64,000 nt of DNA from an uncultured Victivallales bacterium (lineage in GTDB: Bacteria; Verrucomicrobiota; Lentisphaeria; Victivallales; GWF2-45-14): the NCBI GenBank assembly GCA_964651145.1, contig CAZYVR010000001.1, positions 6,839-70,838 on the forward strand, written 5' to 3'. The notes under the pieces are model-generated. The model had not been told where the DNA came from. It saw only the letters and a list, made by a program, of their open reading frames with translations, and did no database searches. The position numbers and the translations under genes were made by a program. This document shows positions 1 to 54,394 of the stretch, one piece after another (the first letter of the stretch is position 1; each line of letters starts with the position of its first letter).

Positions 1-92
1 CGCAAAAAAAACAGCGCATTGCCGCTCCATAGTTGTTCAGGCAATAATCTAAGGCTTGAAGGGCAAAACTCAAAGCGGCATATTAAAAAACA

Positions 93-141
93 ACAAAGGA
101 GCTTGACAAAACTCCTTTGTTATGATACACTATGTAGTGTA
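93..141 (+). promoter_or_regulatory. candidate sigma70-type promoter with overlapping palindromic operator upstream of the GntR/PBP regulator gene
   Basis: TTGACA at 103-108, a 17-nt spacer, then TACACT at 126-131. The -10 lies inside the inverted repeat TACACTA-tg-TAGTGTA (126-141, 7-bp perfect arms). The -35 sits in the loop of a 9-bp hairpin acaaaggag/ctcctttgt (93-101/112-120). Motif-level evidence only. Confidence 0.35.
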
Positions 142-184
142 TTGATTGAATGTATTAATGTTATTAATAATTGAGTTGACAATA

Positions 185-1285
185 ATGACAAAAGCGGAAA
201 AAATTTATCCTGAACTGAAAAAAATGATAACGGAGCTTTCTCCGGGTTCCAGAATTCCGTCTGTAAGAGTTATGATGAAAAAATTCCACGTCAGTCAGTC
301 AACAATTGATCAGGCAATGGGAAAATTCAAAGACGAAGGCCTTGTAGTCACTTATGTTGGCGACGGCACATACACTAAAGGTTATAATGAAAAAAAAGAA
401 AGCTTGATGATAGGCGTTGCCGTGTCGAATTATCCATCCCCACTGGCCATAAATCTCATAAGAAAAACAGAAGAAGAGATAGCAAAAGCAGGGCACTCCA
501 GCAAAATTATCAGATACGACTGGCGCGAGCCGCTTTCAGCGTCAATTGACGCAAAGCCGCTTGATGCTCTTATGCTGTCGCCGGATGCTCTTTTTTCCGC
601 TCAGGACTTTTTTTATATTAATAAGCTAAAAATTCCCACAGTTATTTTAGGCTTTCGCCTGAAGGGAATTGACATTGACACAGTGGGATCTGACAACGAG
701 TACGGCGGCGCGCTTGTGGCGGACTGTTTTATAAAGTCGAATCATAAAAAAATGGCCATTCTTCTTGCGGAGCCTGACAACGTTATATTCCAAAGCCGCC
801 GGGAAGGATTCATCAAGCATGCGCGCCTTTCCGGCATTGATGAAGTGGAGCTGATTAACACAAACACTCAATCAGGCGAAGATGCGTTTGCCAAAGCTTA
901 TTCGGTCATGAGCGATATTTTTAAGAGCAATAATTTTGACTTCAATGCCTTGTTTGTATTGAGCGACGGCAGTGCGCTTGGCGCTTTGAAGGCCGCTCAT
1001 GACAATGCTCTGCGCTTGCCCGATGATCTTAGCTTGATTGGGTACGATGACATTCCGGAAGCCGAATACTATTTCCCTGCCCTTTCGACTGTTCGGCAAA
1101 ATTTGTCAGAATGGGGAAAAGAGGCAGTGAAAATCATAATCAAAAGACTCGCCGGACACAATGGATCGTCAACTCAGAAAATAGTATTCCCTGAAATAAT
1201 TTTGAGGGACACCACCGCGCCAGACACGTCTTTTAACGTCACGAAGGAGATTTCCAATGAGGAAGCACAAATTAAGGTTGTGTAA
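185..1285 (+). CDS. hybrid transcriptional regulator: GntR-type winged HTH fused to a LacI/PBP1-type sugar-binding domain
   Basis: ORF 146-1285; the ATG at 185 (MTKAEK) is preferred over the TTG at 146. N-terminus [41 protein letters not shown] is GntR-like. The C-terminal part ([49 protein letters not shown]) is typical of LacI-family periplasmic-binding folds. Confidence 0.85.
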
Positions 1286-1988
1286 TTCAACAAGATTTAC
1301 ACTTATCGAATTGCTCGTTGTAATTGCCATAATAGCCATCCTTGCGAGCATGCTTCTGCCAGCCCTAGGAAAGGCGAGGGATGTCGCAAAAAAATCATTT
1401 TGCGCCAACAATCTCAAACAAATTTTTCTGGCACAAAACGGCTATGCCGGAGACTATGGATGGTATATGCCCGGCCTGCTTGACCCAAGCGAAAGCTATA
1501 ATCAGCATTGCTGGACTCACAAACTTCGCGAATATATGGGAAATGATGAAGTTCCAACAAGCTGGACGGACATGATACGGCTTAACAGGCTGTCCTTCTA
1601 TTGGTGTCCAAACACCAGAGACGGAGGCAATGACACGCTTTCATATGCAGTAAACAGTTTTGGCTATCTTAAGAACTATTTTGGACTGAAGCCATGCAAG
1701 CCGTCCACTTCCGGCACAGCGGACTCGTCGGCTTACATGATCAAGCCAGACTCGTCTTCCAGAATACCCCCCTCGAAGACCATGTTCTTCAGCGAGCTTG
1801 GAATTTCCGTGTCAAGTTCAAACGGATATGTGCACCACTCAATTAGGAATGGCACATATTTTAATGGCACGGATGGCAGCACGGAGCCGGCTTTCAGGCA
1901 TGGCGGCAAAAAAAATGTTCTTTGGCTTGACGGACATGTTAATTCAGTCAAGCGGAATGAAATGGAATGGCACAACTACATCAAATAA
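1257..1988 (+). CDS. prepilin-type N-terminal cleavage/methylation domain protein, H-X9-DG (DUF1559-like) pseudopilin-like family
   Basis: N-terminus [29 protein letters not shown] is a class III signal with methylation motif. C-terminal [16 protein letters not shown] gives an exact H-X9-DG. SD aaggag lies 8 nt upstream of ATG 1257. The gene overlaps the regulator 3' end by 29 nt. Confidence 0.9.
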
Positions 1989-1999
1989 AGGAAATATCT

Positions 2000-4900
2000 A
2001 TGACAAAAAAACATCTGTTAAGCGTGTTCTTTTCTGCGTTTTTCTCTCTTGTTTTATCTGCTGAAAAAATGGAAAATTTTGAAAACAGGCCGGAGCTAAA
2101 GGTATATAAAGGCGAAGAAAGAGGGGGCTCTTTTGAATTGGCCGAAGCCCCTGACTCAAAAGGAATGTCTGGGAAAGCTTCGTGGAAAGACAAGCATTTT
2201 AAATACAATGAATACAGCTTTAAAAAGTCCTTGAAGCTGCCCGAAAACAAAGATGAGCTCAAAGGAGTCTTGAGCGTTTGGATATACAGCCCAGGCACAA
2301 AAAAAGTCAAAAACATTGGCCTGAGGCTAAGAGACACCAAAGGGGAAATGTTTCAATGGAACCGCAAAAAAACGGATGTTCTGGCGAATAAAGGCTGGCA
2401 CAAATTTGTCTTTGACTTGAAGCCTGGTAATTTTGACGTCTCATGGGGACGCAAAGCCGACCGCAATATTGATTTGCCCATTTTTTTGCATGGCTTTTCC
2501 ATAGACTATAATCCGAAGGCTCCTGGAAAAGGGGAAGTTTATTTCGATGAAATTGAATACATGCCAGCCAAAGACACCAAAATAAGCTCTTATGAAGCTC
2601 TTTATAATTTTGACAGAAAAGAGAAGTGGTTTACTTGGAATTGGAAAGACAAAAAATTTGAAATCAAGCCTGAAAAAGATTGCGTCGCCTTTGCTCGCAA
2701 GCCTTCTCCCCAAAAAACTTATTATCCGCTTGTCTCCAGAAAGATGAGCCTTTTGCCTGCTGGTCGACTGAACAGAATTGAGCTTCAAGCCAACTATGAA
2801 GGCTCGGGGAAAAGTTCTATTGCAATTGATCTGTTTGACTCCGCCAACAAAAGGTTCAGGCTTCCTTTTACGCAGCTTGCTCCTGGCAATAATAAGTTGC
2901 TATGGGACATGACGAAGGAAAACAAAAAATTTAAGCCTCCATTTCATATAAAAGACATAATGTTTTTATGTGCTCCTTCAGAAAAAGAGACTGTGTTGAA
3001 GCTTTTTTCTTTAAACATAGAACAAAAGCTAAGTCCCATGGAATGCATTAAAATAGATATGGAAACAGGAACGCCCATACATGTTTTAAAGGCCGGAGAA
3101 GAGAAAAAGCTTGCCTTGAAATTGACGAACACAGCAAACAAAACATTAAGTTTTGTTATGGAGGCAAAACTCAGTGATTTTTTCTGCGAAAATACTGTTT
3201 TGATTAAGAACTTTGTTGTTCCAGCACAGTCCCAAATAGTTTGGCCCATTCCATTTATTCCCAGAAAATATGGGATATGGCAACTTGATTGCGCTCTCAG
3301 AGAAACAGGAGAAAAAGAAATAACCTGCAAGCGCCGCTCTTTTGCTTATATGAATCCTGCTGGACCGACTCCAGGCAAGGCAAAAGGCTTTCTTTTTGGA
3401 ATATGCACGCATACAGAAAGATGGAGCTGGAAGGATCATGAATTGGAGGTTCTTGCCGCTGTTTTGTGCGGAGCCAAAGTTGTGAGAACGGGCGTTACAT
3501 GGGGAAGCCTTGAAAAAGAGAAAGGCCAATGGGATTGGGCTCTTATGGATAGGTTGGTCAAACTCTACTGGGAAAAAGGCATAGAGCTGCAAACGATTTT
3601 TGCCTTCACCCCCAAATGGGCTGCTCCAGAAAACGCTCAGAAAAGTCCCAAATGGACTGATTGGAGCCGCGCGGTTCCACAAATGGACGCATGGAGAAAT
3701 TATGTCTCAACATTTTCAAAGCGCTACAATGGGAAAATAAGATTTCTGGAGGTCTGGAACGAGCCTGATCTTTCCGGCTTTTTCAAGGGGAAACCTGAGG
3801 AATATATTCAAATGCTCAAAGCGGCATATGAGGAGGTTAAGAAAGTAAATCCTGACCTAAAAGTAATGACCGGCGGCTTTGCCACTCTTCGATATCATCC
3901 TGGAAAAAAATATCCTGATATGCACGAGCAAGTAATAGAAAAAGCTCAAGACTGGTTTGACATACATGCCTTCCATCAGCATGGCACTTTTGGAACCTTT
4001 CAGCCTGAAGTTGACGGAATGTTGACTGAAATAAGGAAAAAACTTAAATCACACAAGCCCTTGTACTTCAACGAAACAGCTGTGAGTTCAATGGATGACA
4101 CACAGAAGGCACAAGCGGAAACTCTCTTCAAAAAAATCATGTTTTCCTTTGCCAGGGGCGCCATGGGATACACATGGTATGACTTGAGAAACGATGGCTA
4201 TAATCCAAAGAACGGCGAGCATAATTATGGACTGTTGACAAATGATTTTTATCCTAAAGCAGCTTATCCGGTATTTAATGCCCTTGCTCTGAATTTTTCA
4301 GACAAAAAGTTTTTGGAGCAACTGGACGCTGGAAAGAATCGTTTTGCTTTTGTGTTTGACGGAAATGGCGAGCAAATAGTTGCTTCATGGAACGAGGAGA
4401 CAGCTACTGCCGACGAGCATCTTATAATAAAAACAAACGCCTCAAAAGCTTATTTTATGGATATTATGGGCAACAAAAAGCCATTGCCAGTTAAAGAAAA
4501 TATGGTGGTCGTCAAAATTTCTTCAATGCCTTCCTGCACTGTTCTGGAAGGAGCAAAAGAGAATGCGGAAATTATAGGAAACATGGTTAAGGTAACTGAA
4601 AAAGAAAATATAATTCCTGGGCGCACGGCAAAAATAACCGTAGAGCTCTTAAATCCTTTCAGCAAAAAGCATGAATACAAAATCAATTGGCTTGTGCCTG
4701 AAGGAATTGAAACAACAAAGATTGCGGACAGCTTCTCTATATTGCCGAAAAGCAAAAAGACAATTCAGATTGTGGCAATCCTCGACAAGAAAGCCGCAGT
4801 TTTGCTAAATGACAAATTTGTTTTGGAGCTTTACTATGAGATTAAAGGAACAGATTGGAAAGGCAACGTTCCTGTTCCATTAAGCGTGGCTAAGCTTTTT

Positions 4901-5491
4901 CCGCCCAACGCGGATAATAAAAGGCCTGCCGACTTTATAATCGACAAGCGGGAGAATGTTTTTAATTTTTCGGAAAACAATCCAGCTACTGCGCATTTGA
5001 ACTGGAAGGGGCCCGAGGACTTGAGCGCAAAAATTTGGCTCGGAAAAGAAGACGATTCATTAACCGTCAAGATCAAGGTTGTGGACGATGTATTTACCCA
5101 AAAATGGAAAGGCGGCAATGTCTGGAAAGGAGACAATGTTCAGATGGCTCTGCAAATTCCAGGACAACAAGGCTTCTGGGAGCTTGGGCTTACAAGATTG
5201 GCTGACGGCTCCGCTGAAGTTTACAACTGGGCAAGACCCTCAGGGTTTGATGATCCTTCTTTGGATACAGGTTTGATCACAGAAAAATTGAATGATGGAA
5301 TTATTTATAAAGCTTCTCTGCCTTTCAAGGCTTTCGGACTTTCAAAAGAAATTCTTGAGAAAGGCATAAAGTTTAACCTGATAATCAATGACAATGATGG
5401 CGAAGCAAGAGAGGGATGGATTCAAATAGCCCCCGGCATCGGAGACAGCAAGAACCCAGAGCCTTTTCCGTTTGTTGTGCTTGACAAGTGA
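2000..5491 (+). CDS. large secreted glycoside hydrolase-like protein (clan GH-A TIM-barrel core, C-terminal CBM9/DOMON-like module)
   Basis: ORF 1967-5491. The ATG at 2000 opens a signal-peptide-like MTKKHLLSVFFSAFFSLVLSAEK. The core carries RFLEVWNEPD (acid/base-like NEP) and LYFNETAV (nucleophile-like). The C-terminus GDNVQMALQIP...FNLIINDNDGEAREGW resembles carbohydrate-binding family 9. The exact GH family was not determined. Confidence 0.7.
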   Translation: MTKKHLLSVFFSAFFSLVLSAEKMENFENRPELKVYKGEERGGSFELAEAPDSKGMSGKASWKDKHFKYNEYSFKKSLKLPENKDELKGVLSVWIYSPGTKKVKNIGLRLRDTKGEMFQWNRKKTDVLANKGWHKFVFDLKPGNFDVSWGRKADRNIDLPIFLHGFSIDYNPKAPGKGEVYFDEIEYMPAKDTKISSYEALYNFDRKEKWFTWNWKDKKFEIKPEKDCVAFARKPSPQKTYYPLVSRKMSLLPAGRLNRIELQANYEGSGKSSIAIDLFDSANKRFRLPFTQLAPGNNKLLWDMTKENKKFKPPFHIKDIMFLCAPSEKETVLKLFSLNIEQKLSPMECIKIDMETGTPIHVLKAGEEKKLALKLTNTANKTLSFVMEAKLSDFFCENTVLIKNFVVPAQSQIVWPIPFIPRKYGIWQLDCALRETGEKEITCKRRSFAYMNPAGPTPGKAKGFLFGICTHTERWSWKDHELEVLAAVLCGAKVVRTGVTWGSLEKEKGQWDWALMDRLVKLYWEKGIELQTIFAFTPKWAAPENAQKSPKWTDWSRAVPQMDAWRNYVSTFSKRYNGKIRFLEVWNEPDLSGFFKGKPEEYIQMLKAAYEEVKKVNPDLKVMTGGFATLRYHPGKKYPDMHEQVIEKAQDWFDIHAFHQHGTFGTFQPEVDGMLTEIRKKLKSHKPLYFNETAVSSMDDTQKAQAETLFKKIMFSFARGAMGYTWYDLRNDGYNPKNGEHNYGLLTNDFYPKAAYPVFNALALNFSDKKFLEQLDAGKNRFAFVFDGNGEQIVASWNEETATADEHLIIKTNASKAYFMDIMGNKKPLPVKENMVVVKISSMPSCTVLEGAKENAEIIGNMVKVTEKENIIPGRTAKITVELLNPFSKKHEYKINWLVPEGIETTKIADSFSILPKSKKTIQIVAILDKKAAVLLNDKFVLELYYEIKGTDWKGNVPVPLSVAKLFPPNADNKRPADFIIDKRENVFNFSENNPATAHLNWKGPEDLSAKIWLGKEDDSLTVKIKVVDDVFTQKWKGGNVWKGDNVQMALQIPGQQGFWELGLTRLADGSAEVYNWARPSGFDDPSLDTGLITEKLNDGIIYKASLPFKAFGLSKEILEKGIKFNLIINDNDGEAREGWIQIAPGIGDSKNPEPFPFVVLDK

Positions 5492-5507
5492 CGCAACAAA
5501 AAGCTCT

Positions 5508-7487
5508 TTATTTAAGCCCGTATTTTCTTTTTTTGCGGTAGAGTGTGCTGCGTCCGACATTCAGGATTTTTGAGGCTTTGCTCATGTTCCCGTTTGCCAT
5601 TTTGAAAGCTTTTTGATACAGAGCCTTTTCGCTTTCCGCCATGCCTTGGCGCTCCTGATGCAATGGGTCGTTATTGCTTTGGGATTCGGGCGGCTCGGTG
5701 TAAAGCAGAGCCATGCGGAGTTGCCCGGGGAGGTCTTTCCAGTCAAGAACGTCTTCTCCGGAGTTGAGCATCACGGCAAATTCGATGGCGTTCCTGAGTT
5801 CCCTGATATTGCCGGGCCATGGATAAGTTTTCAGTTTTTCCATTATCTGAGGAGTCGCGCCCTTTACCTTTTTGCCCATCACCTCGTTGAAGTATTCAAT
5901 GAAATTCTGGATCAGCTCCGGGATGTCGTCGCTGCTGTCCGCTAGTGACGGCAAGCGTATTGAAGACACGTTCAGGCGGTAGAAAAGGTCTTCTCGGAAA
6001 TCGCCCTTTTCAACCAGTTCGGGAATGTTTTTATTTGTTGCCGCGATGATTCTGATATTAACCGGATGGGGCTTGCTTGAGCCGATGCGCGTTATGGTGC
6101 GGTCTTCGAGCAGCCGCAAAAGCTTTGCCTGGAGCTCGATTGGCATGTCTCCTATTTCATCCAGAAAGACGGTGCCTTTGTCGGCGTCTTCCAATTTTCC
6201 GGCTTTTCCTTTTTTGCTGGCTCCGGTGAAAGAGCCTGGAGCGTATCCGAACAGTTCGCTTTCGGCTATTTCGCTGGGGATTGCGGCGCAGTTGATGGCA
6301 ACAAACGGATGTTTTTTTCTTTCACTGGCGTTGTGTATGCTTTGCGCGAACATCTCTTTGCCGGTTCCGCTCGGGCCTGTGAGAAAAGCGTTTACGGATG
6401 TTTCCGCCACGCGCCGGGCCAGTTCGCGGGCCATGGTTATGGCGTGAGTCTGGCCTATTATGTCGTCAAAGGTGTATTTTGCCTCTGTCGAGGTTGAATT
6501 TTCGCTGGCGTGTTCGGTCTTTTCGTGAAAAATAAAAATGCACCCGAGAAACTCGTCATTTTCGCTGAACACCGGATCCTTTTCAAATTTTACCCCGATT
6601 CGCTTGTCAGGCAGGCGAATTTCCATTTTGCCTTCTTTGCATGCGATGGCGCTTTGTGCCAGTTCTTTTATTGTCGGGGTAAATTTTGCGATTTTGTCCA
6701 GAGTTTTTTCTTCAATAAATTTGTCATCAATTTCAAACAGCTTCATGGCCGCCGGATTCATCTGGCGGATATAGCCATTGCGGCTGACCATCGCGGTCGG
6801 CTTATTGTCTTCTTTGAATAGTTTTCTCAGTTGCTTTTTTAGTTCCTGATGCAAAAATTTAGAGCGGGTAAGCCGCATTTCCCTGTCAAGAACGCTGATA
6901 AGCAGTCTGATATTGACTCTCAAAGACATTACTGTCACGTTAGGAAGGAGGCCAAAAAGGGCGATATATCCTTTAAGGACTCCGTCGGCGTCATAAAATG
7001 GCGCGGCGGCTCCAGCCAATGGGTGCAGTTGTTCAAAATAATGCTCGGCGCCTTCGCAGACGGCTGGCAATTTGCTTTCAAGCGCAAGAGACACGGCGTT
7101 GGTTCCTGCTGATTTTTCATTGAGTTTGACGGAAAGGACGATGCCCGCCAGATCCAGAAAGTCTGTAATTTCCTGATTGCAGGAGCCCCGTTCAATAATT
7201 TCGCCTTCTGTTCCGCAAAGGAGCCAGGCTACTTTTAAGCCTGGGAGACCTCTCAAGGACTTGTCGACCAGAGACTTGAGCATATTGTAAAGGGCGTTGT
7301 CCTTAGGGGCGATTGCCAGTTCGTTTTTTTCCAGAAGGAGAGGGCCGAACGCGTCAAGCGTGGAATCGCGGGACCTGGACCAACTGTTGAGAATTTGTTC
7401 CCTCACCGCTGGAAGTTTCCGCTCTTTAATAAAAGAGGACCATTCGTTGTATGTGGCGAAGCTCATTTTTTTTCGCGCCTCCGGCAT
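5508..7487 (-). CDS. sigma54-dependent transcriptional activator (enhancer-binding protein) with N-terminal GAF/PAS-like sensor region
   Basis: AAA+ motifs GPSGTGKEMFAQSIH, ESELFGY, GSFTGA and GTVFLDEIGDMPIELQAKLLRLLE. C-terminal Fis-type HTH GNMSKASKILNVGRSTLYRKKRKYGL. An alternative start at MSFATYNEW (7466) is possible. Confidence 0.9.
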   Translation of the reverse strand: MPEARKKMSFATYNEWSSFIKERKLPAVREQILNSWSRSRDSTLDAFGPLLLEKNELAIAPKDNALYNMLKSLVDKSLRGLPGLKVAWLLCGTEGEIIERGSCNQEITDFLDLAGIVLSVKLNEKSAGTNAVSLALESKLPAVCEGAEHYFEQLHPLAGAAAPFYDADGVLKGYIALFGLLPNVTVMSLRVNIRLLISVLDREMRLTRSKFLHQELKKQLRKLFKEDNKPTAMVSRNGYIRQMNPAAMKLFEIDDKFIEEKTLDKIAKFTPTIKELAQSAIACKEGKMEIRLPDKRIGVKFEKDPVFSENDEFLGCIFIFHEKTEHASENSTSTEAKYTFDDIIGQTHAITMARELARRVAETSVNAFLTGPSGTGKEMFAQSIHNASERKKHPFVAINCAAIPSEIAESELFGYAPGSFTGASKKGKAGKLEDADKGTVFLDEIGDMPIELQAKLLRLLEDRTITRIGSSKPHPVNIRIIAATNKNIPELVEKGDFREDLFYRLNVSSIRLPSLADSSDDIPELIQNFIEYFNEVMGKKVKGATPQIMEKLKTYPWPGNIRELRNAIEFAVMLNSGEDVLDWKDLPGQLRMALLYTEPPESQSNNDPLHQERQGMAESEKALYQKAFKMANGNMSKASKILNVGRSTLYRKKRKYGLK

Positions 7488-7788
7488 ATACTATACAGTT
7501 GCTTGCGTGACCCGTCAGCTTTTTTATAAAAATTTCAAGAAAATAACTGGCGTCCAGCAAGGCGATGGCTCCGCCGTCTATTTAAATTAAAATTATTGGA
7601 ATTACTTGAACTATTGCTTGAAGATTTGGAAAAGCAAGGTCAATTAATATTCTGGTTTTTTAATTAAGGTTTGATGTTTTGATTGCCACAACAATCAACA
7701 ACAATACAGTAACTGAAACAGTTTCTTAGCACAGCTTATAAAATCCGGGAAACTGTACAAATTTAGAATTCAAAAAGAGGCAATTCAC

Positions 7789-9264
7789 TTGATTAGTCGT
7801 TTTAAGAAAAAAATAAGAAGCATATTCGGGTCAGGAAAAAGCGATTCTCCTTCTCCTGAAAATTCTGTCCGCTATGCCGAAAAAAAAGAGCCAGAGCCGC
7901 CATCTGGCGCTCATTCTCGAAAAAGCTCCACGCACAACGAGCGCAATGTCCGGAAACCTGCGCGAAATGTGCGTCATAGTTTCGGTGACAAAAAAAGCTC
8001 CACCCCGCACAAAATATCAAAAGCCCCAGAGATGCCCGCCCTCAAAGAGGTAGAGCCTGAAGAAGGCAAATGTCGCTTTTCCGAGCTGGATGTCAACAAG
8101 GAAATACTTTGCGCTTTGCAGGATTTGGACTTTAAATATTGCACTCCGATCCAGCAGAAATGCCTGCCCGACGCTCTAAATGGAAAAGACATTACAGGCA
8201 AAGCCCAAACTGGCACCGGCAAAACGGCGGCTTTTCTTATAGCCGCTTTTACAAAACTTTTGCGCAATCCCAAAAATGCCCTGAAACGCGGCAGTTGCCG
8301 TATTTTGGTGCTTGCTCCGACACGGGAGCTTGCCATGCAAATTCATAAAGACGCGGAGGGCATCAGCAAGTACTGCGGCTTCAATAACCTTGCCGTTTTC
8401 GGAGGAATGGACCACCGCAAGCAGCGAGACAGATTGGATTATCCCATTGACGCTCTCGTTGGAACGCCAGGCAGAATTTTGGATTTTTGCAACAGCAGGC
8501 ATCTTAATCTTGCCGACACAGAAGTGCTGATCATTGACGAGGCCGACCGAATGCTCGACATGGGCTTTATTCCTGATGTCAGACGCATTGTCAACAAACT
8601 TCCGAAGACTGGTGTGAGACAGACTATGTTTTTCAGCGCCACGCTTACGGATGAAATAACCCGTCTCGTTGACAAATGGCTGGAAGACCCGGTGACTGTG
8701 GAAACAGAGTCGGACCAAGTGGTTACTGACCTGATAGACCAGAAATTCTATTCGGTTTCTCGCAGCGAAAAATTCGCGATGCTCCTTTGGATTTTAAACA
8801 ACAGCGATATTGAGAGAATGCTTATTTTTGGCAATCGCAAGGATTACAATACGGATCTTTACAACAAATTGCGCCGCAATAATATAGAGTGCGAACTTTT
8901 ATCCGGCGACATTCCTCAGAAAAAGCGAATGAATATTCTTGAGGATTTTAGGTCCGGACGCATCAAAGTTGTAGTGGCCACCGATGTGGCGGCGCGCGGA
9001 ATCCATGTTGAAGGCATAAGTCATGTGGTAAACTATGACCTGCCTGAAAGACCGGATGATTACATCCATCGCATCGGACGCACTGGACGGGCGGGAGCCA
9101 CAGGCAAAGCCATAAGCTTTGTATGTGAATACGGAGCTTACATGCTCGAAGAGTTGGAAAAAACTCTTGAGGAAAAAATAAACTGCATTTATCCTGACGA
9201 GGAAATGGTCAAGCTTCCTCCTCTTCCTCGCAATGGCCAAAGAAACCGTTCCAGAAACTACTAA
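7789..9264 (+). CDS. DEAD-box ATP-dependent RNA helicase with basic N-terminal extension
   Basis: Q-motif TPIQQKCLP, then AQTGTGKTAAF, PTRELA, DEAD (IIDEADRML), SAT and HRIGRTGRAG. TTG start at 7789 follows agagg. A 300-nt upstream leader is present. Confidence 0.9.
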   Translation: MISRFKKKIRSIFGSGKSDSPSPENSVRYAEKKEPEPPSGAHSRKSSTHNERNVRKPARNVRHSFGDKKSSTPHKISKAPEMPALKEVEPEEGKCRFSELDVNKEILCALQDLDFKYCTPIQQKCLPDALNGKDITGKAQTGTGKTAAFLIAAFTKLLRNPKNALKRGSCRILVLAPTRELAMQIHKDAEGISKYCGFNNLAVFGGMDHRKQRDRLDYPIDALVGTPGRILDFCNSRHLNLADTEVLIIDEADRMLDMGFIPDVRRIVNKLPKTGVRQTMFFSATLTDEITRLVDKWLEDPVTVETESDQVVTDLIDQKFYSVSRSEKFAMLLWILNNSDIERMLIFGNRKDYNTDLYNKLRRNNIECELLSGDIPQKKRMNILEDFRSGRIKVVVATDVAARGIHVEGISHVVNYDLPERPDDYIHRIGRTGRAGATGKAISFVCEYGAYMLEELEKTLEEKINCIYPDEEMVKLPPLPRNGQRNRSRNY

Positions 9265-9395: not shown

Positions 9396-10607
9396 TTATT
9401 TTTTCATCAACTCATCAACAAACACCATGCGTTCTTCGCGCCCTGACAGTTCCGCGGCTTGTCCGATTGCAGTTGAAAGCATTCCGTGCTCCGCAGTTGA
9501 AGTGTTGTTTGAATTTCCCCTTATAATTTCAAGGAATGAGTTGACCAGGCCGGGATCTGCTCCGCCATGTCCACCATGTGTTTCAGGAATTTTGTATGTT
9601 ATTACTTCCTCTGACCAACGAGGCTGGACAGTTATTTTTTTGTCATGAAGACTTACTTCTGCTTGTCCCCGGTCGCCAATAATAGTGTAGCGGCGGTCGG
9701 AGATGGGGGTTACAAAACATTCCAAGTGGCTGGCTCTTACTCCATTCTCGTATTCGACTATGGCTATGCCGTTGTCATGTGTGTCTTTGTCTGACAGATA
9801 CATGCAAAGGTCCTTGGAATAATTATCCTCTTTAATCGCCTCTTCACCCCATTCTTCAGTTGTGCCGACGTCTTTATAGCAATCCGGGCAAATCTTTTTG
9901 TAAGCGCATTTTGTGCAGGTAGGACCAGCCGGTTTTCCTTCTTCGACTTCAAAGGGAAGATTTTTGTCATTCAACACATTGATTCCGGCTGTCGCGCTGA
10001 CTTTTACAGGCTTCGGGAAATTGAGCAGCCAGTTGAAAACGTCAAAGTCATGGCTTCCCTTGTGAATCCAAAGGCCGCCGGACAGCGCATATTTGCGGTT
10101 CCAGCGGGACATGTATGTCCTGCCGCCATTGTAGAATTCACGATTTTCTATCATGAACACTTTGCCAAGGATGCCGTCGTCAATGATTTGTTTCAAGCGC
10201 TTGAGAGTTGGATCGTGGCGCAGATTAAAGCCGATCATCACAGTTTTGCCGGTTTCTTTTGCGGCCGCGAGAATATCTTTACAGCCTTTTACTGTTGTTG
10301 CAAGGGGCTTGTCCACAAGCACATTGATTCCTCGCTTCAGAGCGGCTACTGAATTGTCTGCGTGACAGTAATCCGGGCTTGTTACTATGACAGCGTCAAG
10401 CTCCTCATTGTCTGCCATCTCATCGACCGAAGAGTAAAGATTTGGAGTTTTGGCAAACCTTTTGGCGGCTGCCTTCATGCGCACTGCATTGGGGTCGCAA
10501 AGAGCAATGACTTCCGTATCTTCGCATTTTTCCAGATGCATGCCAAAGCAACTTATCCCTCTGCTTCCTGAACCTATTATTCCGAATTTCATGATTTTTT
10601 TTGACAT
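9396..10607 (-). CDS. Gfo/Idh/MocA family oxidoreductase
   Basis: N-terminal Rossmann segment KFGIIGSGSRGISCFG...VIALCDPN, then VIVTSPDYCHADNSVAALKRGINVLVDKP, typical of this family. It lies downstream of the LacI gene on the same strand. Confidence 0.85.
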   Translation of the reverse strand: MSKKIMKFGIIGSGSRGISCFGMHLEKCEDTEVIALCDPNAVRMKAAAKRFAKTPNLYSSVDEMADNEELDAVIVTSPDYCHADNSVAALKRGINVLVDKPLATTVKGCKDILAAAKETGKTVMIGFNLRHDPTLKRLKQIIDDGILGKVFMIENREFYNGGRTYMSRWNRKYALSGGLWIHKGSHDFDVFNWLLNFPKPVKVSATAGINVLNDKNLPFEVEEGKPAGPTCTKCAYKKICPDCYKDVGTTEEWGEEAIKEDNYSKDLCMYLSDKDTHDNGIAIVEYENGVRASHLECFVTPISDRRYTIIGDRGQAEVSLHDKKITVQPRWSEEVITYKIPETHGGHGGADPGLVNSFLEIIRGNSNNTSTAEHGMLSTAIGQAAELSGREERMVFVDELMKK

Positions 10608-10659
10608 TTTTTCTTCCTTGTTTTTATTATTGTCTGGATTTAATGAAACATAATCAACG

Positions 10660-11709
10660 TTAGTTTAATTTCATGAAAACCTCTTCTCTAAGTTTTTTGT
10701 CAGGCATAGGAGCGCTTTCGCGCACTATTAAATTTGTCGAATATATCAGGCTCGCTATTTTGCGGCCTGGGTCATCTAAGCTTTTCTTGCAAAGCTCAAT
10801 AACGGCGTCAGTCATTTCCTGCGCTGGCTGTCCTACGGTTGTAAGTGGCGAAGCCGCGAATTTGGCTTCGGGAATATCGTCGAAGCCCACCACTTTGACA
10901 TCTTCCGGAACCCGAAGGCCATTTTCCTTTACGGCTTTCAAAGCGCCTATTGCCATTTCATCGTTGGAGCAGAACAGAGCGTCCACAGCTTTAGTCCTTA
11001 AGGCTTCCAGCGTTGCCTGATAGCCGATGTTGAAACCGTCCTTCGTTATTGAATTGAAGCGTTGAAAAGGGAAAAGATTTATTGAAGAAAGCGGTTGTTT
11101 CAAGGATTTGTAGGCAGCGATGATGCTTCGCAAACGGTCATTGGGATCTTCAAAGGAGCTGTCGTTGTAGAAAAGAATATTTTTGCATCCGCCAAGAAGC
11201 AGCAGACGCGCGGCCTGGAACATCCCGTTCTCCCGGTATATTTCCACTGAATCAAATTCTTCGCTTGCGCATTCCATAAGGACCACATGCGCCGCGCTGT
11301 TCTTTAGCAAATTTATGGTCTTTTGATCAAGCTTTATGCCGTTTATGACAAGGAATCGGCATTTCTGAGCCAAAGCTGTCTGCACTGCTTGCGCTGCGGA
11401 CATGGAGCCGCTTTTCATTTGTATGTTTGCCGCTCCGAATTCCTTTATCGCTTTTTGCAGCAAAATGTAATTCTTAAGGGTTCCGATTGAATTGTAGCTG
11501 TATTGCGAGGTAATTATAGTCATGCCAACGCTTTTTCCTGTCCTCAGAGAGCTGGCCTGAAAGTTCGGCACATAGTCCATTTCATCCGCAATCTTGAGTA
11601 TTGCTTCGCGTTTCTTTTCTGACACTCCAACTTTTCCTGATAGGGCGCGGGATACTGTTCCTGTCGTGACTCCGGCTTTCGCGGCTATATCTTTGAGCTG
11701 GCTTGACAT
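10660..11709 (-). CDS. LacI family transcriptional regulator
   Basis: HTH LKDIAAKAGVTTGTVSRALSGKVGVSEKKREAILKIADEMDYVPN. C-terminal VVGFDDIPEAKFAASPLTTVGQP. The ATG at 11709 is preferred to the TTG at 11718. Confidence 0.9.
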   Translation of the reverse strand: MSSQLKDIAAKAGVTTGTVSRALSGKVGVSEKKREAILKIADEMDYVPNFQASSLRTGKSVGMTIITSQYSYNSIGTLKNYILLQKAIKEFGAANIQMKSGSMSAAQAVQTALAQKCRFLVINGIKLDQKTINLLKNSAAHVVLMECASEEFDSVEIYRENGMFQAARLLLLGGCKNILFYNDSSFEDPNDRLRSIIAAYKSLKQPLSSINLFPFQRFNSITKDGFNIGYQATLEALRTKAVDALFCSNDEMAIGALKAVKENGLRVPEDVKVVGFDDIPEAKFAASPLTTVGQPAQEMTDAVIELCKKSLDDPGRKIASLIYSTNLIVRESAPMPDKKLREEVFMKLN

Positions 11710-11711
11710 AA

Positions 11712-11780
11712 TAAACAATCGGTTTAACTTTTTCTTTTATAAATTTTACAACTTCCTAATTATTATAAAGCAATCGATTG
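11712..11780. promoter_or_regulatory. candidate LacI-type operators in the divergent LacI/PHP promoter region
   Basis: Perfect 10-bp palindrome CAATCGATTG at 11771-11780, whose AATCGATT core resembles LacI/CcpA-type sites. A second, related site taaacAATCGgttta lies at 11712-11726. Motif-level evidence only. Confidence 0.3.
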
Positions 11781-13978: not shown

Positions 13979-14791
13979 TCAGTCGTCGTCCGTCACTTCC
14001 AGGACAATGTCAAGCTGCATGGCTCCCTTAGGCGGTTTGGGCAAAGCTGAAAGTTCAGCGAGAAGGCGTTTGACAGATATATCCATTGCGGAAATGCCGC
14101 TAGATTTTATGATCTTTGTCGACTTCACTCGTCCAGCCGCGTCAATCGAAACCTGCACTGTCACTTCCGGGGTTCTGCCGCCCAATTCGGTTTTGAGAGG
14201 CTGTTTCCAAATTTTGTAAATATATCCGGAAACGACTTCATTATATTCCATTTCGGATTGGGACATGCGCGCGCCAGGCTCGGAGACAGTCACTGTCGAC
14301 TGCAAACTTTTCAAACGGCTGGCAATATTTTTCGCCGAAACTTTAGGTCGAGCTTTCTGAACCTTGCCTTTTACCTCGTTTTTTGAGATTTTTATCTTGG
14401 AGATATCCAGAGGTTTCCATTTTGGTTTTTTCGGCTTGGGCTTTTTGGGCTTCGGCTTGGGCTTCGGCTTGGGCTTCGGCTTGGTTTTCGGCTTCGGCTT
14501 TTGAGGTGGTTTCGGCCTTTCGGCTTTTGGCGGAGTTGGAGCAGGCGGAGCAGCGGAAGGCGCATTGGCGCTTTGCTCAGGCATGGGCTTAACCAGATTT
14601 ACCTGGATGCTTTTTGGACGCTTCGGCTTAAGCCACTGTATCATAAAATATACGCAAAGCGGAAGAATGACCAGAACGACATGCGCAATGATTACAATAA
14701 TTAAAATGCGCTTTTTTAAGCGTCTGCTTATCAGGCGCTTCTCTTCGTCTTTATTATGAAAATCAGAATAAAACTGTTTTTCTTTGCTCAT
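13979..14791 (-). CDS. tonB: TonB-like energy transducer
   Basis: Single N-terminal TM (ILIIVIIAHVVLVILPLCVYF). Pro/Lys-rich spacer PKPKTKPKPKPKPKPKPKKPKPKKPK, encoded by tandem ggcttN repeats at about 14431-14500. C-terminal TonB-like domain. The start overlaps the exbD stop (ATGA, 14788-14791). Confidence 0.8.
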   Translation of the reverse strand: MSKEKQFYSDFHNKDEEKRLISRRLKKRILIIVIIAHVVLVILPLCVYFMIQWLKPKRPKSIQVNLVKPMPEQSANAPSAAPPAPTPPKAERPKPPQKPKPKTKPKPKPKPKPKPKKPKPKKPKWKPLDISKIKISKNEVKGKVQKARPKVSAKNIASRLKSLQSTVTVSEPGARMSQSEMEYNEVVSGYIYKIWKQPLKTELGGRTPEVTVQVSIDAAGRVKSTKIIKSSGISAMDISVKRLLAELSALPKPPKGAMQLDIVLEVTDDD

Positions 14792-15198
14792 TGCGCATCA
14801 GCCTGAGTTACGAGCGAAATATTGGAAAAGCCAATATTTTTCGCCATTTTCATTAATCCCATGACTTCTTTGTAGGGCCGCGAGCCGTCCGCGCGAATTA
14901 AAAGCGTGGTCTTGCGATTCCTCAAATATAAAGATTCCAAGTCCTTAAAAAGCTCCTCCCGCGTGACTGTCAGCCTGTCGAAGACAATATTTCCGCTTTT
15001 TTCCAGATTGATGACTCTGCTGTTTTCGTCCGGCAGTTCATCCGCGTTCATTTCGGGAGGCGAAACATCCACGCCGTATTCCAGAAGAGGTGCTGTTATC
15101 ATAAAAATAATCAGCAGAAGGAATGTCAAGTCGATCAACGGAGTCATATTGATCTCGTCAATTGCATCCAGTTGCGATCTGTGTCTTTGTCTGCTCAT
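14788..15198 (-). CDS. exbD: ExbD/TolR biopolymer transport protein
   Basis: INMTPLIDLTFLLLIIFMITAPL motif and the expected size, sitting between exbB and tonB. Confidence 0.9.
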   Translation of the reverse strand: MSRQRHRSQLDAIDEINMTPLIDLTFLLLIIFMITAPLLEYGVDVSPPEMNADELPDENSRVINLEKSGNIVFDRLTVTREELFKDLESLYLRNRKTTLLIRADGSRPYKEVMGLMKMAKNIGFSNISLVTQADAQ

Positions 15199-15204
15199 GC
15201 GCGC

Positions 15205-15945
15205 TTATTCCACATCCAATTGTTCAAGTTTGATCTTCGCGAGAAATTCTTCCACAAAATTGTCCATATAAACTATGATCTTGCGAATGGTCACCTTCAG
15301 AAGGTTATGCCCGATGAGCGATGGTATCGCAACGAGCAGACCCACCACTGTAGTGAGCAGCGCCCCGCTCACGCCAGGCGCCAGGGCTGAAATGTCGGCG
15401 CGTCCCTGCGAGGCAATGCTGCAAAAAGCCATCATCACTCCCCATACCGTGCCGAAAAGCCCGAAGAAAGGGCTCACGCTTACCGCAGTGGCAAGCAAGC
15501 CAATTTTGTCTTCAATCGCGAGGATCTGGTCTGATACCTCACGTTCAAGAGCAGTGCGGATAGCCTCGATTTCAGCAGAGCTAAGATTCTGCCGTGGAAT
15601 TTGCCCGGCTCCGTAAAGAGTCGCATCCTCTTTTGATATTTTATGGAAATCAAGCAGTCTTTTTATGCCGTTCTCGCAGACTCTGGCTACAGGGCTGATA
15701 TTTTGCTCTGAGTCGCGGAGCAGGGAAAGGGGATATTTTTTGTTTCTGAACAACCTTATAAATACTTCGGACGCTTTTTGCGCGCGATACAATGAAATGC
15801 CTTTTTCTATCATTATAGTCCAGGTAAGAATGGAGCCTAAAAAAAGCAGCAGAACCACGCCTTTTCCGACGCCATCGCTTTGTTGAAACGCATAATATGG
15901 GCTCGCGTCGGCGAGGCAAACAGTGAAGAATGCAGTCATTTTCAT
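15205..15945 (-). CDS. exbB: MotA/TolQ/ExbB proton-channel protein
   Basis: C-terminal channel region LATAVSVSPFFGLFGTVWGVMMAF...APGVSGALLTTVVGLLVAIPSLIGHN. First gene of the exbB-exbD-tonB operon. Confidence 0.9.
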   Translation of the reverse strand: MKMTAFFTVCLADASPYYAFQQSDGVGKGVVLLLFLGSILTWTIMIEKGISLYRAQKASEVFIRLFRNKKYPLSLLRDSEQNISPVARVCENGIKRLLDFHKISKEDATLYGAGQIPRQNLSSAEIEAIRTALEREVSDQILAIEDKIGLLATAVSVSPFFGLFGTVWGVMMAFCSIASQGRADISALAPGVSGALLTTVVGLLVAIPSLIGHNLLKVTIRKIIVYMDNFVEEFLAKIKLEQLDVE

Positions 15946-40493: not shown

Positions 40494-41708
40494 TTAAAGA
40501 GTCAAATCGGGATTTTTTGGGCCAAAATGTTTAAGCATAACAATGGGGTCGGCTTGTGATGAATTGCTTATGATTATGCCTTCCCGAGCCGCTTTTTCCG
40601 TTACAAAAAACTCATCGTTTGTCAGTTGTCCGAAACGGATAAGAGCTGGTGTTTCAATGTTCAAGCCATTCATCTTTCCATGTCCTTGCATCATAATCAT
40701 GCCGTATGCGGCATTGTCTTTTATCGTTATCGTCTGCCCCGGGAGAACCGTCAACTCTTTTGCGCTGAAGTCTGTGGATTTATAACATATCCATTTTTCA
40801 ATGTATCCTTCCGCGCGCATTTCGTTTTCGTTTTTGACTGGAATCGGGCGCATAAACCGGTTTTTTCCGAATTCCGGGTCTGTGTTTTTCTCCCAGTCTA
40901 TGACTTCGACAAGCCAGTCAAAATCGCCGATGCGCTCCTTGGGCGAGTCTTTCCAGAGAAGCTCTTCGGGCACTATCTGATTGTCCACAAGAGACTCATA
41001 CATTGCAAAAACGTCCGAAGCCTTTTGCGGCTCGTAAGTGCACAAGCTCCCGGGCGCGTGGAGGATTCCAGGCGGCACATCCCATCCCGTTCCAGGATCA
41101 AGGCTGTAAGCCTTTGAAAGGCTGGTTATCTTATTGTCGCCCTTTGTGAAGTTCACAAGACATTCCCTCACTTGCTCCTTGCTCACTCCGGGCTCAAAGC
41201 CAAAAAATGTAAAGCCGAAATGTCCTGGATGATTATTCAATTGCGGCGGAAAGTAATAGGCTTCCGGCTTGCCTTTCTGATTCACAAGGCGCGCGTGTTC
41301 CTCTCTGTGATGGATATGAAATGGCAGAGGGCCGAGATTGTCGAAAAACTTTGAATACATAGGCCAGCATTTGTGTTTGCTCCATATTCGCTCGCCCACG
41401 ATGTCTGCTTTAAGCTCTTCAATCGCGTCCCTCAAAAGGAATTGTTCGCTTTTTCCGCCGTCCTCAAAAACAATATTGCTCAGGCCTTCGTTGCGTCCGG
41501 TCAAAGGGCCGTTGTCCGCTGGCGTGGTCGATGCCAGCCAGCGTTCGTCAATGCCCCCTCTTTGGCCGCCGAGCGCGTAATAATCGTCCGGGTGCAGTTT
41601 GATTCTTCTGCCGGGGATGCAGAATGAGCGCGGCACCCAGTTCGGGGCAAGCCTTAATACTCCATTGCCTTGCTCCAAAGCTTTTTCAGTCAAATTTTTA
41701 ATGGACAT
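40494..41708 (-). CDS. cupin-fold sugar (phospho)isomerase-like protein
   Basis: LGPLPFHIHHREEHARLVNQKGKPEAYYF (metal-binding His cluster plus Glu in a cupin-like context). It sits next to a glycoside-hydrolase-like gene and an AraC regulator. The family assignment is tentative. Confidence 0.35.
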   Translation of the reverse strand: MSIKNLTEKALEQGNGVLRLAPNWVPRSFCIPGRRIKLHPDDYYALGGQRGGIDERWLASTTPADNGPLTGRNEGLSNIVFEDGGKSEQFLLRDAIEELKADIVGERIWSKHKCWPMYSKFFDNLGPLPFHIHHREEHARLVNQKGKPEAYYFPPQLNNHPGHFGFTFFGFEPGVSKEQVRECLVNFTKGDNKITSLSKAYSLDPGTGWDVPPGILHAPGSLCTYEPQKASDVFAMYESLVDNQIVPEELLWKDSPKERIGDFDWLVEVIDWEKNTDPEFGKNRFMRPIPVKNENEMRAEGYIEKWICYKSTDFSAKELTVLPGQTITIKDNAAYGMIMMQGHGKMNGLNIETPALIRFGQLTNDEFFVTEKAAREGIIISNSSQADPIVMLKHFGPKNPDLTL

Positions 41709-43855: not shown

Positions 43856-43916
43856 CACTGATTTTATGCTATTGTTTGCACATAAATGATATTAAGGAAT
43901 CAATAAATATTTGTCA

Positions 43917-44783
43917 ATGGATGAGTGGCTCAATATAATTTCGCCGTGCATAAGGCTTATTGGCGACGCAGAAACACGGCCCGGATGGGTCGAAGCTATG
44001 CGCGTCATTTATGATCACGAGCTTGTTTTTTTTGAAAAAAGCTCGTATGCGCTCGACATAGAAGGCGAAAAAATTGACTGTCCGCCTAATTCATTTATTA
44101 TTGTTCCGCCTGGGAAAAGGCATATTTCCAGAGACGCATCATACAAGCGCGGACACAGGCGCTGGATTCACTTTGATTGGAACTACCATGAGAGCAAAGC
44201 GGAATATCCAGTGATGACATATTGTCCAGCTCGCCCCCAGGAAGCTCTTTTCAGAAAAGCCCCGCCTCATGTGCCTGAAAAAATAATTAGAGGGCCAATA
44301 AAGTCCCCTCGGGCAATAGAACTGTTTGAGAGGATATCCAATCGTTGGCGCTATGGCAATCTCCACAGCAGGTGCGCCTGCCGCGGTTTATTGCTAGAGT
44401 TGTTGCTGGAACTGCTTTGTTCCGGATACAATCAATTTGAGGAGCAGTCGGAAGGGAATCGTCTTGGCGGAAGGATTAGATACTTGTTGAATAAGCTTGC
44501 GGAAGAGCCGCTTTGCAAAATGGGCTCCATTTCGGACGCGCTTGAAAAACAGGGAATGAGCTATGCTCATCAATGCCGTGTCTTTAAGCAATGTTATGGA
44601 ATTTCTCCTTTAAGCTATGTGAATGCCCTGCGAGCGGAGCGCGCGAAAAATCTTTTGCGGGACACTCATTTCGATATTTCAGAAATTGCGGAGAGGCTGG
44701 GATACAACAACCTGGGGTATTTTTCCAGATTTTTCAAAAAGAATGTTGGCGTCAGCCCCAGCTATTTCAGATTGAATCCTTGA
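43917..44783 (+). CDS. AraC family transcriptional regulator
   Basis: C-terminal double HTH CRVFKQCYGISPLSYVNALRAERAKNLLRDTHFDISEIAERLGYNNLGYFSRFFKKNVGVSPSYFR. N-terminal cupin-like domain. Confidence 0.88.
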   Translation: MDEWLNIISPCIRLIGDAETRPGWVEAMRVIYDHELVFFEKSSYALDIEGEKIDCPPNSFIIVPPGKRHISRDASYKRGHRRWIHFDWNYHESKAEYPVMTYCPARPQEALFRKAPPHVPEKIIRGPIKSPRAIELFERISNRWRYGNLHSRCACRGLLLELLLELLCSGYNQFEEQSEGNRLGGRIRYLLNKLAEEPLCKMGSISDALEKQGMSYAHQCRVFKQCYGISPLSYVNALRAERAKNLLRDTHFDISEIAERLGYNNLGYFSRFFKKNVGVSPSYFRLNP

Positions 44784-47434: not shown

Positions 47435-47490
47435 GAGTCGTTTATAATTTGAAAAGCAAATGATATTTTTATTTGAACTGAGGTCAAAAC

Positions 47491-53359: not shown

Positions 53360-53441
53360 GGTCAATCTCCTCGCATGTGATATAATATAATCATATCGCT
53401 TTGACATTAACGCACTTTAAGTGCAAAAAAGGAGATTGACC
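53360..53441 (+). promoter_or_regulatory. structured leader of the IS110-type transposase gene (SD-sequestering inverted repeat)
   Basis: ggtcaatctcct (53360-53371) is perfectly complementary to aggagattgacc (53430-53441), which covers the SD aaggag (53429-53434) directly before ATG 53442. An inner hairpin gcact-tta-agtgc lies at 53412-53424, and TATAAT at 53381-53386. Confidence 0.5.
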
Positions 53442-54255: not shown

Positions 54256-54394
54256 TTTCCGCATTTACGACCGGTGCGAATAAATGAACCGGACATGAAA
54301 ATCCTGCTTTCATCCAGTTTTTTTATTCTTGCGTTAATGCGTTTTTTTTAGCATTTCTGTTGAAATTTTGTCCTTCACTCTCAATTCCTCTCAG

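Follow-up and report, generated by a model that had tools for sequence, protein, structure and literature searches.

A recurrent gene unit of regulator, DUF1559/H-X9-DG pilin-like protein and exported carbohydrate-active enzyme in Lentisphaerota

Few families have expanded as much in Planctomycetota, Verrucomicrobiota and Lentisphaerota as the DUF1559/H-X9-DG proteins, of which genomes carry tens to hundreds of copies, and the locus considered here raises the question of what such a protein does when its gene sits between those of a sugar-type regulator and a giant exported hydrolase. The locus (module 1) occupies positions 185 to 5,491 of a 64,000-nt stretch of the genome of an uncultured Victivallales bacterium (GenBank assembly GCA_964651145.1, contig CAZYVR010000001.1, positions 6,839 to 70,838 of the forward strand); "the window" refers to this whole stretch throughout. 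A preliminary description had recognized the three genes, had noted a similar gene pair elsewhere in the window (module 2), and had suggested that the pilin-like proteins act together with the enzymes. We find that the order of regulator, pilin-like gene and gene for an exported carbohydrate-active enzyme (CAZyme) is a recurrent unit of Lentisphaerota. Very probably it constitutes a three-gene, substrate-inducible and self-regulated cassette directed against an extracellular glycan, and several explanations compete for the part played by its pilin-like member.

Three closely packed genes and their products

Module 1 and its upstream region comprise the following features.

103-131, + strand: sigma-70-type promoter upstream of the regulator gene, TTGACA-17 nt-TACACT with a TG extension (consensus match only)
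125-142, no strand assigned: perfect 8+8 inverted repeat ATACACTA-TG-TAGTGTAT covering the -10 hexamer (read from the sequence)
185-1285, + strand: AraR-type chimeric regulator, 366 aa, with a GntR helix-turn-helix (HTH) and a LacI/GalR-type effector domain
1257-1988, + strand: prepilin-like DUF1559/H-X9-DG protein 1, 243 aa (TIGR02532, PF07596, RH-x9-DGH motif)
2000-5491, + strand: exported multidomain GH39-like glycoside hydrolase (GH), enzyme 1, 1163 aa (Pfam GH39, AlphaFold2 (AF2) model, Foldseek)

The open reading frame (ORF) map and the raw sequence bear out the tight same-strand packing reported in the preliminary description, and the gene identities given there, a sugar-type regulator, a prepilin-like DUF1559/H-X9-DG protein and an exported polysaccharide-type hydrolase, were right. 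The regulator gene runs from ATG 185 to a TAA stop at 1283-1285 and, as had been stated, overlaps the pilin-like gene by 29 nt; the latter starts at ATG 1257, with AAGGAG at 1245-1250 six bases before it, and ends with TAA at 1986-1988. The hydrolase ATG lies just past this stop, as also claimed, at position 2000, preceded by AAAGGAAA and separated from the stop end at 1988 by a spacer of 11 nt. Only the size of the enzyme needed correction, from 1164 to 1163 aa, since the earlier figure included the stop codon. An alternative hydrolase ATG at 1967, used by two public gene calls, would overlap the pilin-like gene by 22 nt; the genes are packed closely with either start, and coupled translation is therefore feasible. 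A scan by consensus found no terminator-like site and no convincing internal promoter between the three genes, which, to judge from their layout, are probably carried on one mRNA with coupled translation. At the far end of the module, the gene of a PrdR/DhaR-like sigma-54 enhancer-binding protein (5508-7487, - strand) converges on the hydrolase gene with 16 nt between the stops.

The regulator matches Pfam GntR (40.4 bits, cut-off 27) and Peripla_BP_3 (97 bits, cut-off 26.5), and its C-terminal part matches LacI-family sugar-binding domains in the PDB. By these matches it is predicted to have the architecture of the AraR subfamily, in which a GntR winged HTH is joined to an effector domain of LacI/GalR type. 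The promoter upstream of its gene, with 10/12 matches to the consensus, is the top-scoring promoter-like site in positions 1-7800. The palindrome over its -10 hexamer is unique in the window even at three mismatches (chance expectation 0.13), and GTAT/TAGTGTAT-type repeats occur at the same position in orthologous loci. The palindrome is the probable operator for autoregulation by a GntR-type repressor, with ATACACTATGTAGTGTAT as a probable, candidate target site of the regulator, and the natural reading of the region would be that of an autoregulated repressor relieved by a sugar. AraR of Bacillus subtilis resembles this regulator in its chimeric architecture, its type of sugar-responsive repression and a palindromic operator, here predicted, over the promoter; the identity is low (effector domain match to 3tb6, E = 8e-11), and, in contrast to AraR, the regulator here is the first gene of the operon that is presumably under its control.

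The middle gene product is predicted to belong to the DUF1559/H-X9-DG family and to have the type IV pilin/pseudopilin fold. It begins with a 13-residue basic leader and a cleavage-site context of NSTR/FTLIELL, which is followed by a hydrophobic helix. The prepilin N-terminal domain TIGR02532 is matched at 22.0 bits against a cut-off of 16.3, which is passed by the pilin-like proteins of both modules, and PF07963 falls slightly under its cut-off (20.6 versus 21.2 bits). PF07596 (DUF1559) is matched at 22.6 bits, against a gathering score of 23.3; it is found in 31 of 34 aligned relatives at E <= 1e-3 and in orthologues of 46-61% identity. The TIGR04294 model is not significant for protein 1, so that its H-X9-DG membership is assigned by motif only (RH215-x9-D225-G226-H, nearly invariant across the 34-sequence alignment). 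F14 (+1) and E18 (+5) are invariant in the same alignment, and alpha-1 carries a C-x-NNLKQ signature. The AF2 model built from these 34 sequences (predicted local distance difference test, pLDDT, 93.7) shows a 52-residue helix (16-67) that leads to an alpha/beta head. Similarity to solved pilins covers the N-terminal ~60 residues; PDB sequence and fold searches retrieved only type IV pilins and GspG, weakly and via the helix, and gave no solved relative for the head. An assignment as a GspG orthologue was rejected, as TIGR01710 scores 27.2 bits against a cut-off of 88.85 and aligns only with residues 14-70.

GspG/PulG, the minor pseudopilins GspH-K and type IV pilins share with protein 1 the short basic leader, F+1, E+5, a hydrophobic N-terminal helix of ~20 residues that extends as a long alpha-1, and an alpha/beta head. 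Protein 1 differs from them in lacking Gly(-1), in a head that exceeds theirs by ~100 residues and lacks a solved relative, in a gene that stands outside any gsp/pil operon, and in belonging to a family with thousands of paralogues, each beside a different enzyme gene. With the DUF1559 (PF07596, "SBP_bac_10") and H-X9-DG-CTERM (TIGR04294) proteins of the Planctomycetes-Verrucomicrobia-Chlamydiae (PVC) bacteria it shares C-x-NNLKQ on alpha-1 and the C-terminal RH-x9-DGH, whereas the Lentisphaerota subgroup is shorter (~240 aa), has no Gly(-1) and is systematically encoded between genes for a sugar-responsive regulator and for an exported CAZyme.

Enzyme 1 is divided as follows.

aa ~22-452: three beta-sandwich domains (model)
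aa ~455-775, nt ~3362-4324, + strand: (beta/alpha)8 catalytic domain with WNEP (E588) and NET (E692)
aa ~776-990: beta domains (model)
aa ~1000-1163, nt ~4997-5488, + strand: domain resembling carbohydrate-binding module (CBM) family 9, a beta-sandwich in the model

Its sequence identifies it as a putative Sec-exported retaining clan GH-A glycosidase of GH39-like type, with E588 as predicted acid/base and E692 as predicted nucleophile. A Sec signal peptide spans aa 1-20 (MTKK, a hydrophobic stretch and LSA/EK) and appears as a low-confidence helix in the AF2 model, which has an overall pLDDT of 88. Pfam GH39 (PF01229) is matched at 32.5 bits (cut-off 26), and W586-N587-E588-P589 and E692 are invariant in the 21 homologues that we found; these come from Victivallales/Victivallis and two Armatimonadota metagenome-assembled genomes, and the family looks rare. 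Among solved proteins the closest are PslG of P. aeruginosa, an exopolysaccharide hydrolase of GH39, and the GH39 of Bacteroides cellulosilyticus (BcGH39, 5jvk), which matches at E = 6e-25 in phmmer over residues 466-850 and at E = 9e-28 with a TMt of 0.73 in Foldseek. Both share the clan GH-A TIM barrel, the NEP acid/base and the conserved nucleophile Glu (Foldseek TMt 0.72-0.74), with an identity of ~21%, and enzyme 1 is twice their size, adding the three N-terminal beta-sandwich domains and the CBM9-like C-terminus. For the latter, CBM9_1 reaches 21.8 bits over residues 1001-1161 against a gathering score of 23.4, and PF06452 is found in several homologues.

Recurrence of the gene order

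Around enzyme 1 orthologues of 33-65% identity, Victivallales/Lentisphaeria contigs with unrelated flanks keep the same triad, in which a GntR- or LacI-HTH regulator with a periplasmic-binding-protein domain precedes a pilin-like gene of ~240 aa and an enzyme gene of ~1100 aa. The triad-bearing loci are L004 (a 5.69-Mb Victivallales contig), L005 and L006 (uncultured Victivallis), L007, L008 and L012. L008 holds two modules and is the sole place where secretion-machine genes adjoined a module: two secretin-family genes (Secretin_N, faint, and Secretin; L008:11184-15013) directly follow a module of regulator, pilin-like, enzyme and GH42-like genes. In L004, a group II intron-type reverse transcriptase gene (RVT_1 + GIIM, L004:6898-8286) lies 600 nt upstream of the triad.

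The neighbourhood comparison proposed in the preliminary description was run on 80 loci from many genomes, taken from one-genome-per-species contigs that were fetched with the alignment of 34 pilin-like proteins. ORFs were called with a simple greedy script, a crude form of gene calling, and the sample is biased to relatives of the window protein. A gene was counted as paired if its downstream neighbour lay on the same strand within 150 nt and encoded at least 450 aa. The result was positive in Lentisphaerota, where 38/65 pilin-like genes (58%) were paired compared with 41/373 (11%) of the other genes in the same loci, a 5-fold higher frequency (odds ratio 11.4, Fisher p = 4.5e-16). "Bystander" pilin genes in the flanks, which had not been chosen by query similarity, were paired in 11 of 20 cases by hand count. 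In the Verrucomicrobiota-type loci only 2 of 27 were paired, and there a small lipoprotein or membrane protein, typically of 125-150 aa, usually follows. Thus the repeated operonic pairing with secreted enzymes that had been proposed holds as to association and packing, and in the loci sampled is a feature of Lentisphaerota rather than a general property of PVC bacteria.

The order from pilin-like to enzyme gene, the common strand and spacers below 50 nt are conserved. The downstream partners (n=40) include GH39/GH5/GH10-like, GH20, GH42, GH78, GH106, GH123, polysaccharide lyase family 8 (PL8) and heparinase II/III proteins, besides DUF4838, DUF6259, CBM9 and laminin-G-type proteins. A signal-peptide-like N-terminus was present in 30 of 35 large partners and in 22 of 63 control proteins (p = 1e-6). 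On the upstream side, a same-strand gene of 280-480 aa precedes 34 of 64 pilin-like genes. In a set of 39 upstream partners, Peripla_BP_3 was found in 22, and the HTH domains were of the GntR (19), LacI (5) and AraC (2) types.

The window itself contains the second module.

60032-60766, - strand: prepilin-like DUF1559/H-X9-DG protein 2, 244 aa, Pro at -1
56501-59965, - strand: second giant exported enzyme (enzyme 2), 1154 aa, GTG start at 59965
60860-61648, + strand: AraC-family regulator divergent from module 2 (HTH_18 60.4 bits, AraC_binding 36.5 bits)

The order of pseudopilin and giant hydrolase does recur on the other strand at 60766-56501, as first noted, with a spacer of 66 nt that contains TAAGGAG. 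Protein 2 is 35% identical to protein 1 (BLASTP E = 2e-28) and passes the cut-offs of both PF07596 (24.1 bits) and TIGR04294 (27.7 bits, cut-off 19). Enzyme 2 has an N-terminal signal peptide, is possibly a lipoprotein (Cys21), and matches Pfam Cellulase (25.5 bits, cut-off 23.5) and CBM_4_9 (22.8 bits) with a weak GH5/GH42-type TIM-barrel signal; it gave no PDB sequence match and no BLASTP similarity to enzyme 1. As unrelated enzymes are combined with pilin paralogues of 35% identity, the two modules are no simple tandem duplication. Relatives of enzyme 2 in L010 and L011 likewise stand behind pilin-like genes. The divergent AraC-family gene likely encodes the regulator of module 2, judging by position alone.

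These observations bear on the trivial explanation that numerous pilin-like genes came to lie beside abundant CAZyme genes by chance or hitch-hiking, with no functional link. The genomes are generally CAZyme-rich and the family is very large, as this explanation would have it, but chance adjacency is effectively excluded by the odds ratio of 11.4 against other genes in the same loci, by the conserved order, strand and short spacers, by the retention of the triad with orthologous enzymes in unrelated genomic contexts, and by the shared arrangement of two unrelated enzymes in one window.

The upstream side of the unit could also suggest that the pilin-like protein is a regulatory or sensory partner, which senses the extracellular glycan and modulates the regulator whose gene overlaps its own. 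At least 12 other loci show such an overlap, of 4-41 nt as against 29 nt here. The regulator, however, already has a LacI-type sugar pocket, the pilin-like protein has almost no cytoplasmic part beyond its 13-residue leader, module 2 has a divergent AraC-family gene instead, and about half of the pairs have no upstream regulator, which together make a sensory role very improbable.

Two of the three DUF1559-like genes of the window have an enzyme partner. The third, divergent one (52293-52988, + strand, 231 aa, PF07596 31.4 bits) has none; its product has the N-terminus KKCFTFIEMLLVFVV and ends in H-x9-KDAH rather than H-x9-DGH. After it come a convergent 61-aa ORF of Zn-ribbon-like type and then an IS110-family transposase gene (53421-54351, + strand), which is split in two overlapping frames and is probably a frameshifted pseudogene; insertion of this element may have disrupted a former module. 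Elsewhere, DUF1559 genes outside the enzyme-paired class are followed within ~70 nt by genes of small proteins of 124-153 aa (L032:8797-9240, L035:8669-9106, L060:2755-3162, L083:4895-5266, L010:3443-3901 on the - strand, L038:1021-1443 and L070:15290-15736), which are lipobox-containing helical proteins in Verrucomicrobiota-type loci and, in some Lentisphaeria loci, proteins with an N-terminal membrane anchor. A second, distinct conserved pairing seems to be present here.

Candidate roles of the pilin-like protein

Canonical prepilin peptidases need Gly, rarely Ala, at position -1, and in pilins F+1 and E+5 come into play only once cleavage has occurred, in methylation and filament packing. 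Protein 1 has Arg at -1 (codon 1293-1295) and protein 2 has Pro (codon 60728-60730). Only 4 of 67 Lentisphaerota paralogues and 7 of 119 database relatives carry G/A at this site, which is mostly occupied by R, K or N; in Verrucomicrobiota-type loci it is G/A/S in 27 of 27. The leaders are very short, with a median of 6 residues. As an independent predictor of a large partner the -1 residue was rejected: its association with partner size (p = 5e-4 overall) reflects taxonomy and vanishes within Lentisphaerota (p = 1.0). The sequences suggest either that the Lentisphaerota paralogues are processed with a relaxed or different specificity, or that the proteins stay membrane-anchored. A loss of Gly(-1) was not found described in the literature on DUF1559/H-X9-DG proteins and Lentisphaerota prepilins.

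The second of these alternatives would make the protein an uncleaved bitopic inner-membrane protein, whose periplasmic head binds oligosaccharide products, or retains or chaperones the enzyme, in the manner of a tethered solute-binding protein. The scarcity of G/A at -1, which sets Lentisphaerota apart from the Verrucomicrobiota-type loci, and the very short leaders agree with such an anchor, as do a Trp/Tyr-rich head without a solved relative and the Pfam name SBP_bac_10. Against it, invariant F+1 and E+5 argue that a mature N-terminus is still produced, and the cassette includes no ABC or other transporter; we consider it improbable.

The heads themselves offer further evidence. Their content of Trp and Tyr is 9.7%, compared with a background of 4.4% (p = 1e-23), and they are also rich in N/D/S/T/G. 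Among seven orthologous enzymes of 33-41% identity, four pilin heads (the window sequence W1, L004, L007 and L012) are mutual best matches at 62-198 bits; the heads of L005 and L008 are unrelated to the rest despite orthologous enzymes, and heads diverge much faster than enzymes. Co-phylogeny of pilin heads and partner enzymes was ambiguous and does not discriminate between mechanisms. No common docking domain was found when hidden Markov models of each domain of enzyme 1 were compared with 42 partners and 63 controls, as matches occurred only within the own family.

From the literature, DUF1559 is known as the largest paralogue group in Planctopirus, with its function described as unknown (PMC10632474), a view also expressed in PMC2754498 and PMC5352709, and we found no functional study of DUF1559/H-X9-DG proteins or of Victivallis/Lentisphaerae pseudopilins. 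The only published hint of a link with CAZymes that we found is the 2026 description of Verruconatronum alginivorum, in which a pulG-like pseudopilin, 1 of 67 paralogues, is encoded inside an alginate-induced degradation cluster, and in whose proteome another pseudopilin is over-expressed on alginate, with export by a type II secretion system (T2SS) being suggested (PMC13274419). As it reports co-induction of pseudopilin paralogues and alginate lyases, this work counts in favour of a pilin/CAZyme link. The cluster resembles the modules in that a pseudopilin paralogue lies within polysaccharide-degradation genes; it differs in belonging to another phylum and in its greater size, with multiple genes that include those of lyases and a transporter, and the study addresses neither pairing as a general rule nor the role of the head domain.

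Read in this light, the pilin-like protein could be a cargo-specific secretion adaptor, a minor pseudopilin of the T2SS pseudopilus that recruits or pushes its co-translated enzyme over the outer membrane, with one such protein per exoenzyme. We regard this as somewhat unlikely, and nevertheless as a close rival of the glycan-capture role set out below. It would account for the tight coupling and for an apparent 1:1 pairing that involves none but Sec-exported enzymes; GspG/PilA give the best N-terminal similarity, one module in L008 adjoins secretin genes, and T2SS export of co-clustered alginate lyases has been proposed (PMC13274419). On the other side stand the unrelated heads on orthologous enzymes at 33-41% identity (L005, L008), partner enzymes without a common docking domain, a GspG equivalog score far under its cut-off (27 versus 88.85 bits), the occurrence of the family without enzyme neighbours in Verrucomicrobiota-type loci, and the absence of Gly(-1). 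Characterised T2SSs are not known to need cargo-specific pseudopilins, which also counts against an adaptor.

We tentatively favour a role in glycan capture and hand-over. In this mechanism, a sugar of the target glycan would bind the AraR-type repressor and free the palindrome over its own promoter, so that the three genes would be co-expressed. The enzyme would be exported via Sec, and the pilin-like protein would enter the inner membrane by its N-terminal helix and pass to a machine of T2SS or type IV pilus-like type whose genes lie elsewhere in the genome. Outside the cytoplasm, its hypervariable head, rich in Trp and Tyr, would then be the subunit that captures a specific glycan for the co-expressed enzyme or hands it over. 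By functional analogy this role could be likened to that of SusD or surface glycan-binding proteins (SGBPs) in the polysaccharide utilisation loci (PULs) of Bacteroidota, or to the chitin-regulated pilus of Vibrio. We favour it because heads vary independently of enzyme lineage and partners may come from any enzyme family, and because no docking domain was found and the family occurs without enzyme neighbours in other phyla. Head swaps fit specificity driven by substrate better than specificity driven by cargo.

Several points weigh against glycan capture and against the wider reading of the unit. No genes for a T2SS, a type IV pilus or a prepilin peptidase were found in the 64-kb window, and with Gly(-1) absent, cleavage and filament assembly are only presumed. 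The enzymes have CBM-like domains of their own, so that a separate binder is not obviously needed, and the composition of the heads, which is typical of sugar-binding surfaces, is weak evidence. An enzyme orthologue in L009 has no pilin-like gene upstream. In a control Pfam scan, non-adjacent large genes of the same loci were also often CAZymes, and some of the signal for CAZyme neighbours is background in genomes that are CAZyme-rich throughout; for this reason the claim of enrichment rests on position, strand, size and signal peptide.

Other genes of the window and meaning of the cassette

A contrast to the exported, pilin-paired enzymes is found within the window at 41720-43783 (- strand), where the one large GH of cytoplasmic type, a 687-aa GHL6/alpha-L-fucosidase-like/GH42M enzyme, has neither a signal peptide nor a pilin-like partner. 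Beside it are a downstream gene of a 404-aa protein without a Pfam match (40494-41708, - strand) and a divergent AraC regulator gene (43911-44783, + strand). Next to module 2, the gene at 54766-55932 (+ strand) converges on the end of the enzyme 2 gene; it encodes a 388-aa acidic protein with no Pfam match or signal peptide, the C-terminal half of which has three EF-hand/dockerin-like Asp-rich loops (DLDMDGKKD, DKNNDGKINDGGE and DEDGNGWIDEND). On the other side of the module, the AraC-family gene at 60860-61648 (+ strand) and a second one at 61629-62543 (- strand) converge, with their 3' ends overlapping by 20 nt, and the second faces a URO-D-like gene (62668-63732). The remainder of the window includes a PAS histidine kinase and NtrC-type response regulator pair (44957-48912, + strand), which is the second sigma-54 system of the window, and a LacI-family regulator with a GFO/IDH/MocA oxidoreductase (9396-11718, - strand). 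A TonB/ExbB(MotA) pair (13979-15945, - strand) is unlinked to the modules, and no gene for a TonB-dependent receptor turned up in the window. Scanning the window for Rfam families and tRNAs gave no matches.

The cassette follows the same logic as the PULs of Bacteroidota, in which exported CAZymes are combined with a regulator of their own and with an accessory protein that is non-catalytic and extracytoplasmic, in units that are glycan-specific and repeatedly duplicated. The modules differ in that the accessory protein is pilin-like and in that neither of them is adjoined by a transporter, a SusC-like TonB-dependent transporter or SusD, their neighbours being regulator, pilin-like protein and enzyme. 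The component families, AraR-type regulators, GH39 and DUF1559/H-X9-DG, are already known, and the finding itself reveals no new mechanism; in the literature on DUF1559/H-X9-DG and Victivallis/Lentisphaerae pseudopilins, we found no description of a systematic Lentisphaerota cassette of regulator, pilin-like protein and exported CAZyme.

Independently of the function of the cassette, the processing of prepilins in Lentisphaerota becomes a question of its own, given the systematic loss of Gly(-1). For annotation, the arrangement suggests the rule that in these genomes a pilin-like gene points to an enzyme that degrades extracellular glycans, among them many giant proteins without a Pfam match. 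More broadly, DUF1559/H-X9-DG proteins could be interchangeable, glycan-specific "cartridges" on a shared T2SS or type IV pilus-like machine, a PVC counterpart of SusD/SGBP with non-canonical processing in Lentisphaerota, where each would be co-expressed with its cognate exported enzyme under a regulator specific for a sugar. This extension is decidedly doubtful; if true, it would account for the most numerous orphan paralogue family of the PVC superphylum and would amount to a new type of polysaccharide utilisation locus. The cassette gives this large orphan family a directly testable role in polysaccharide breakdown.

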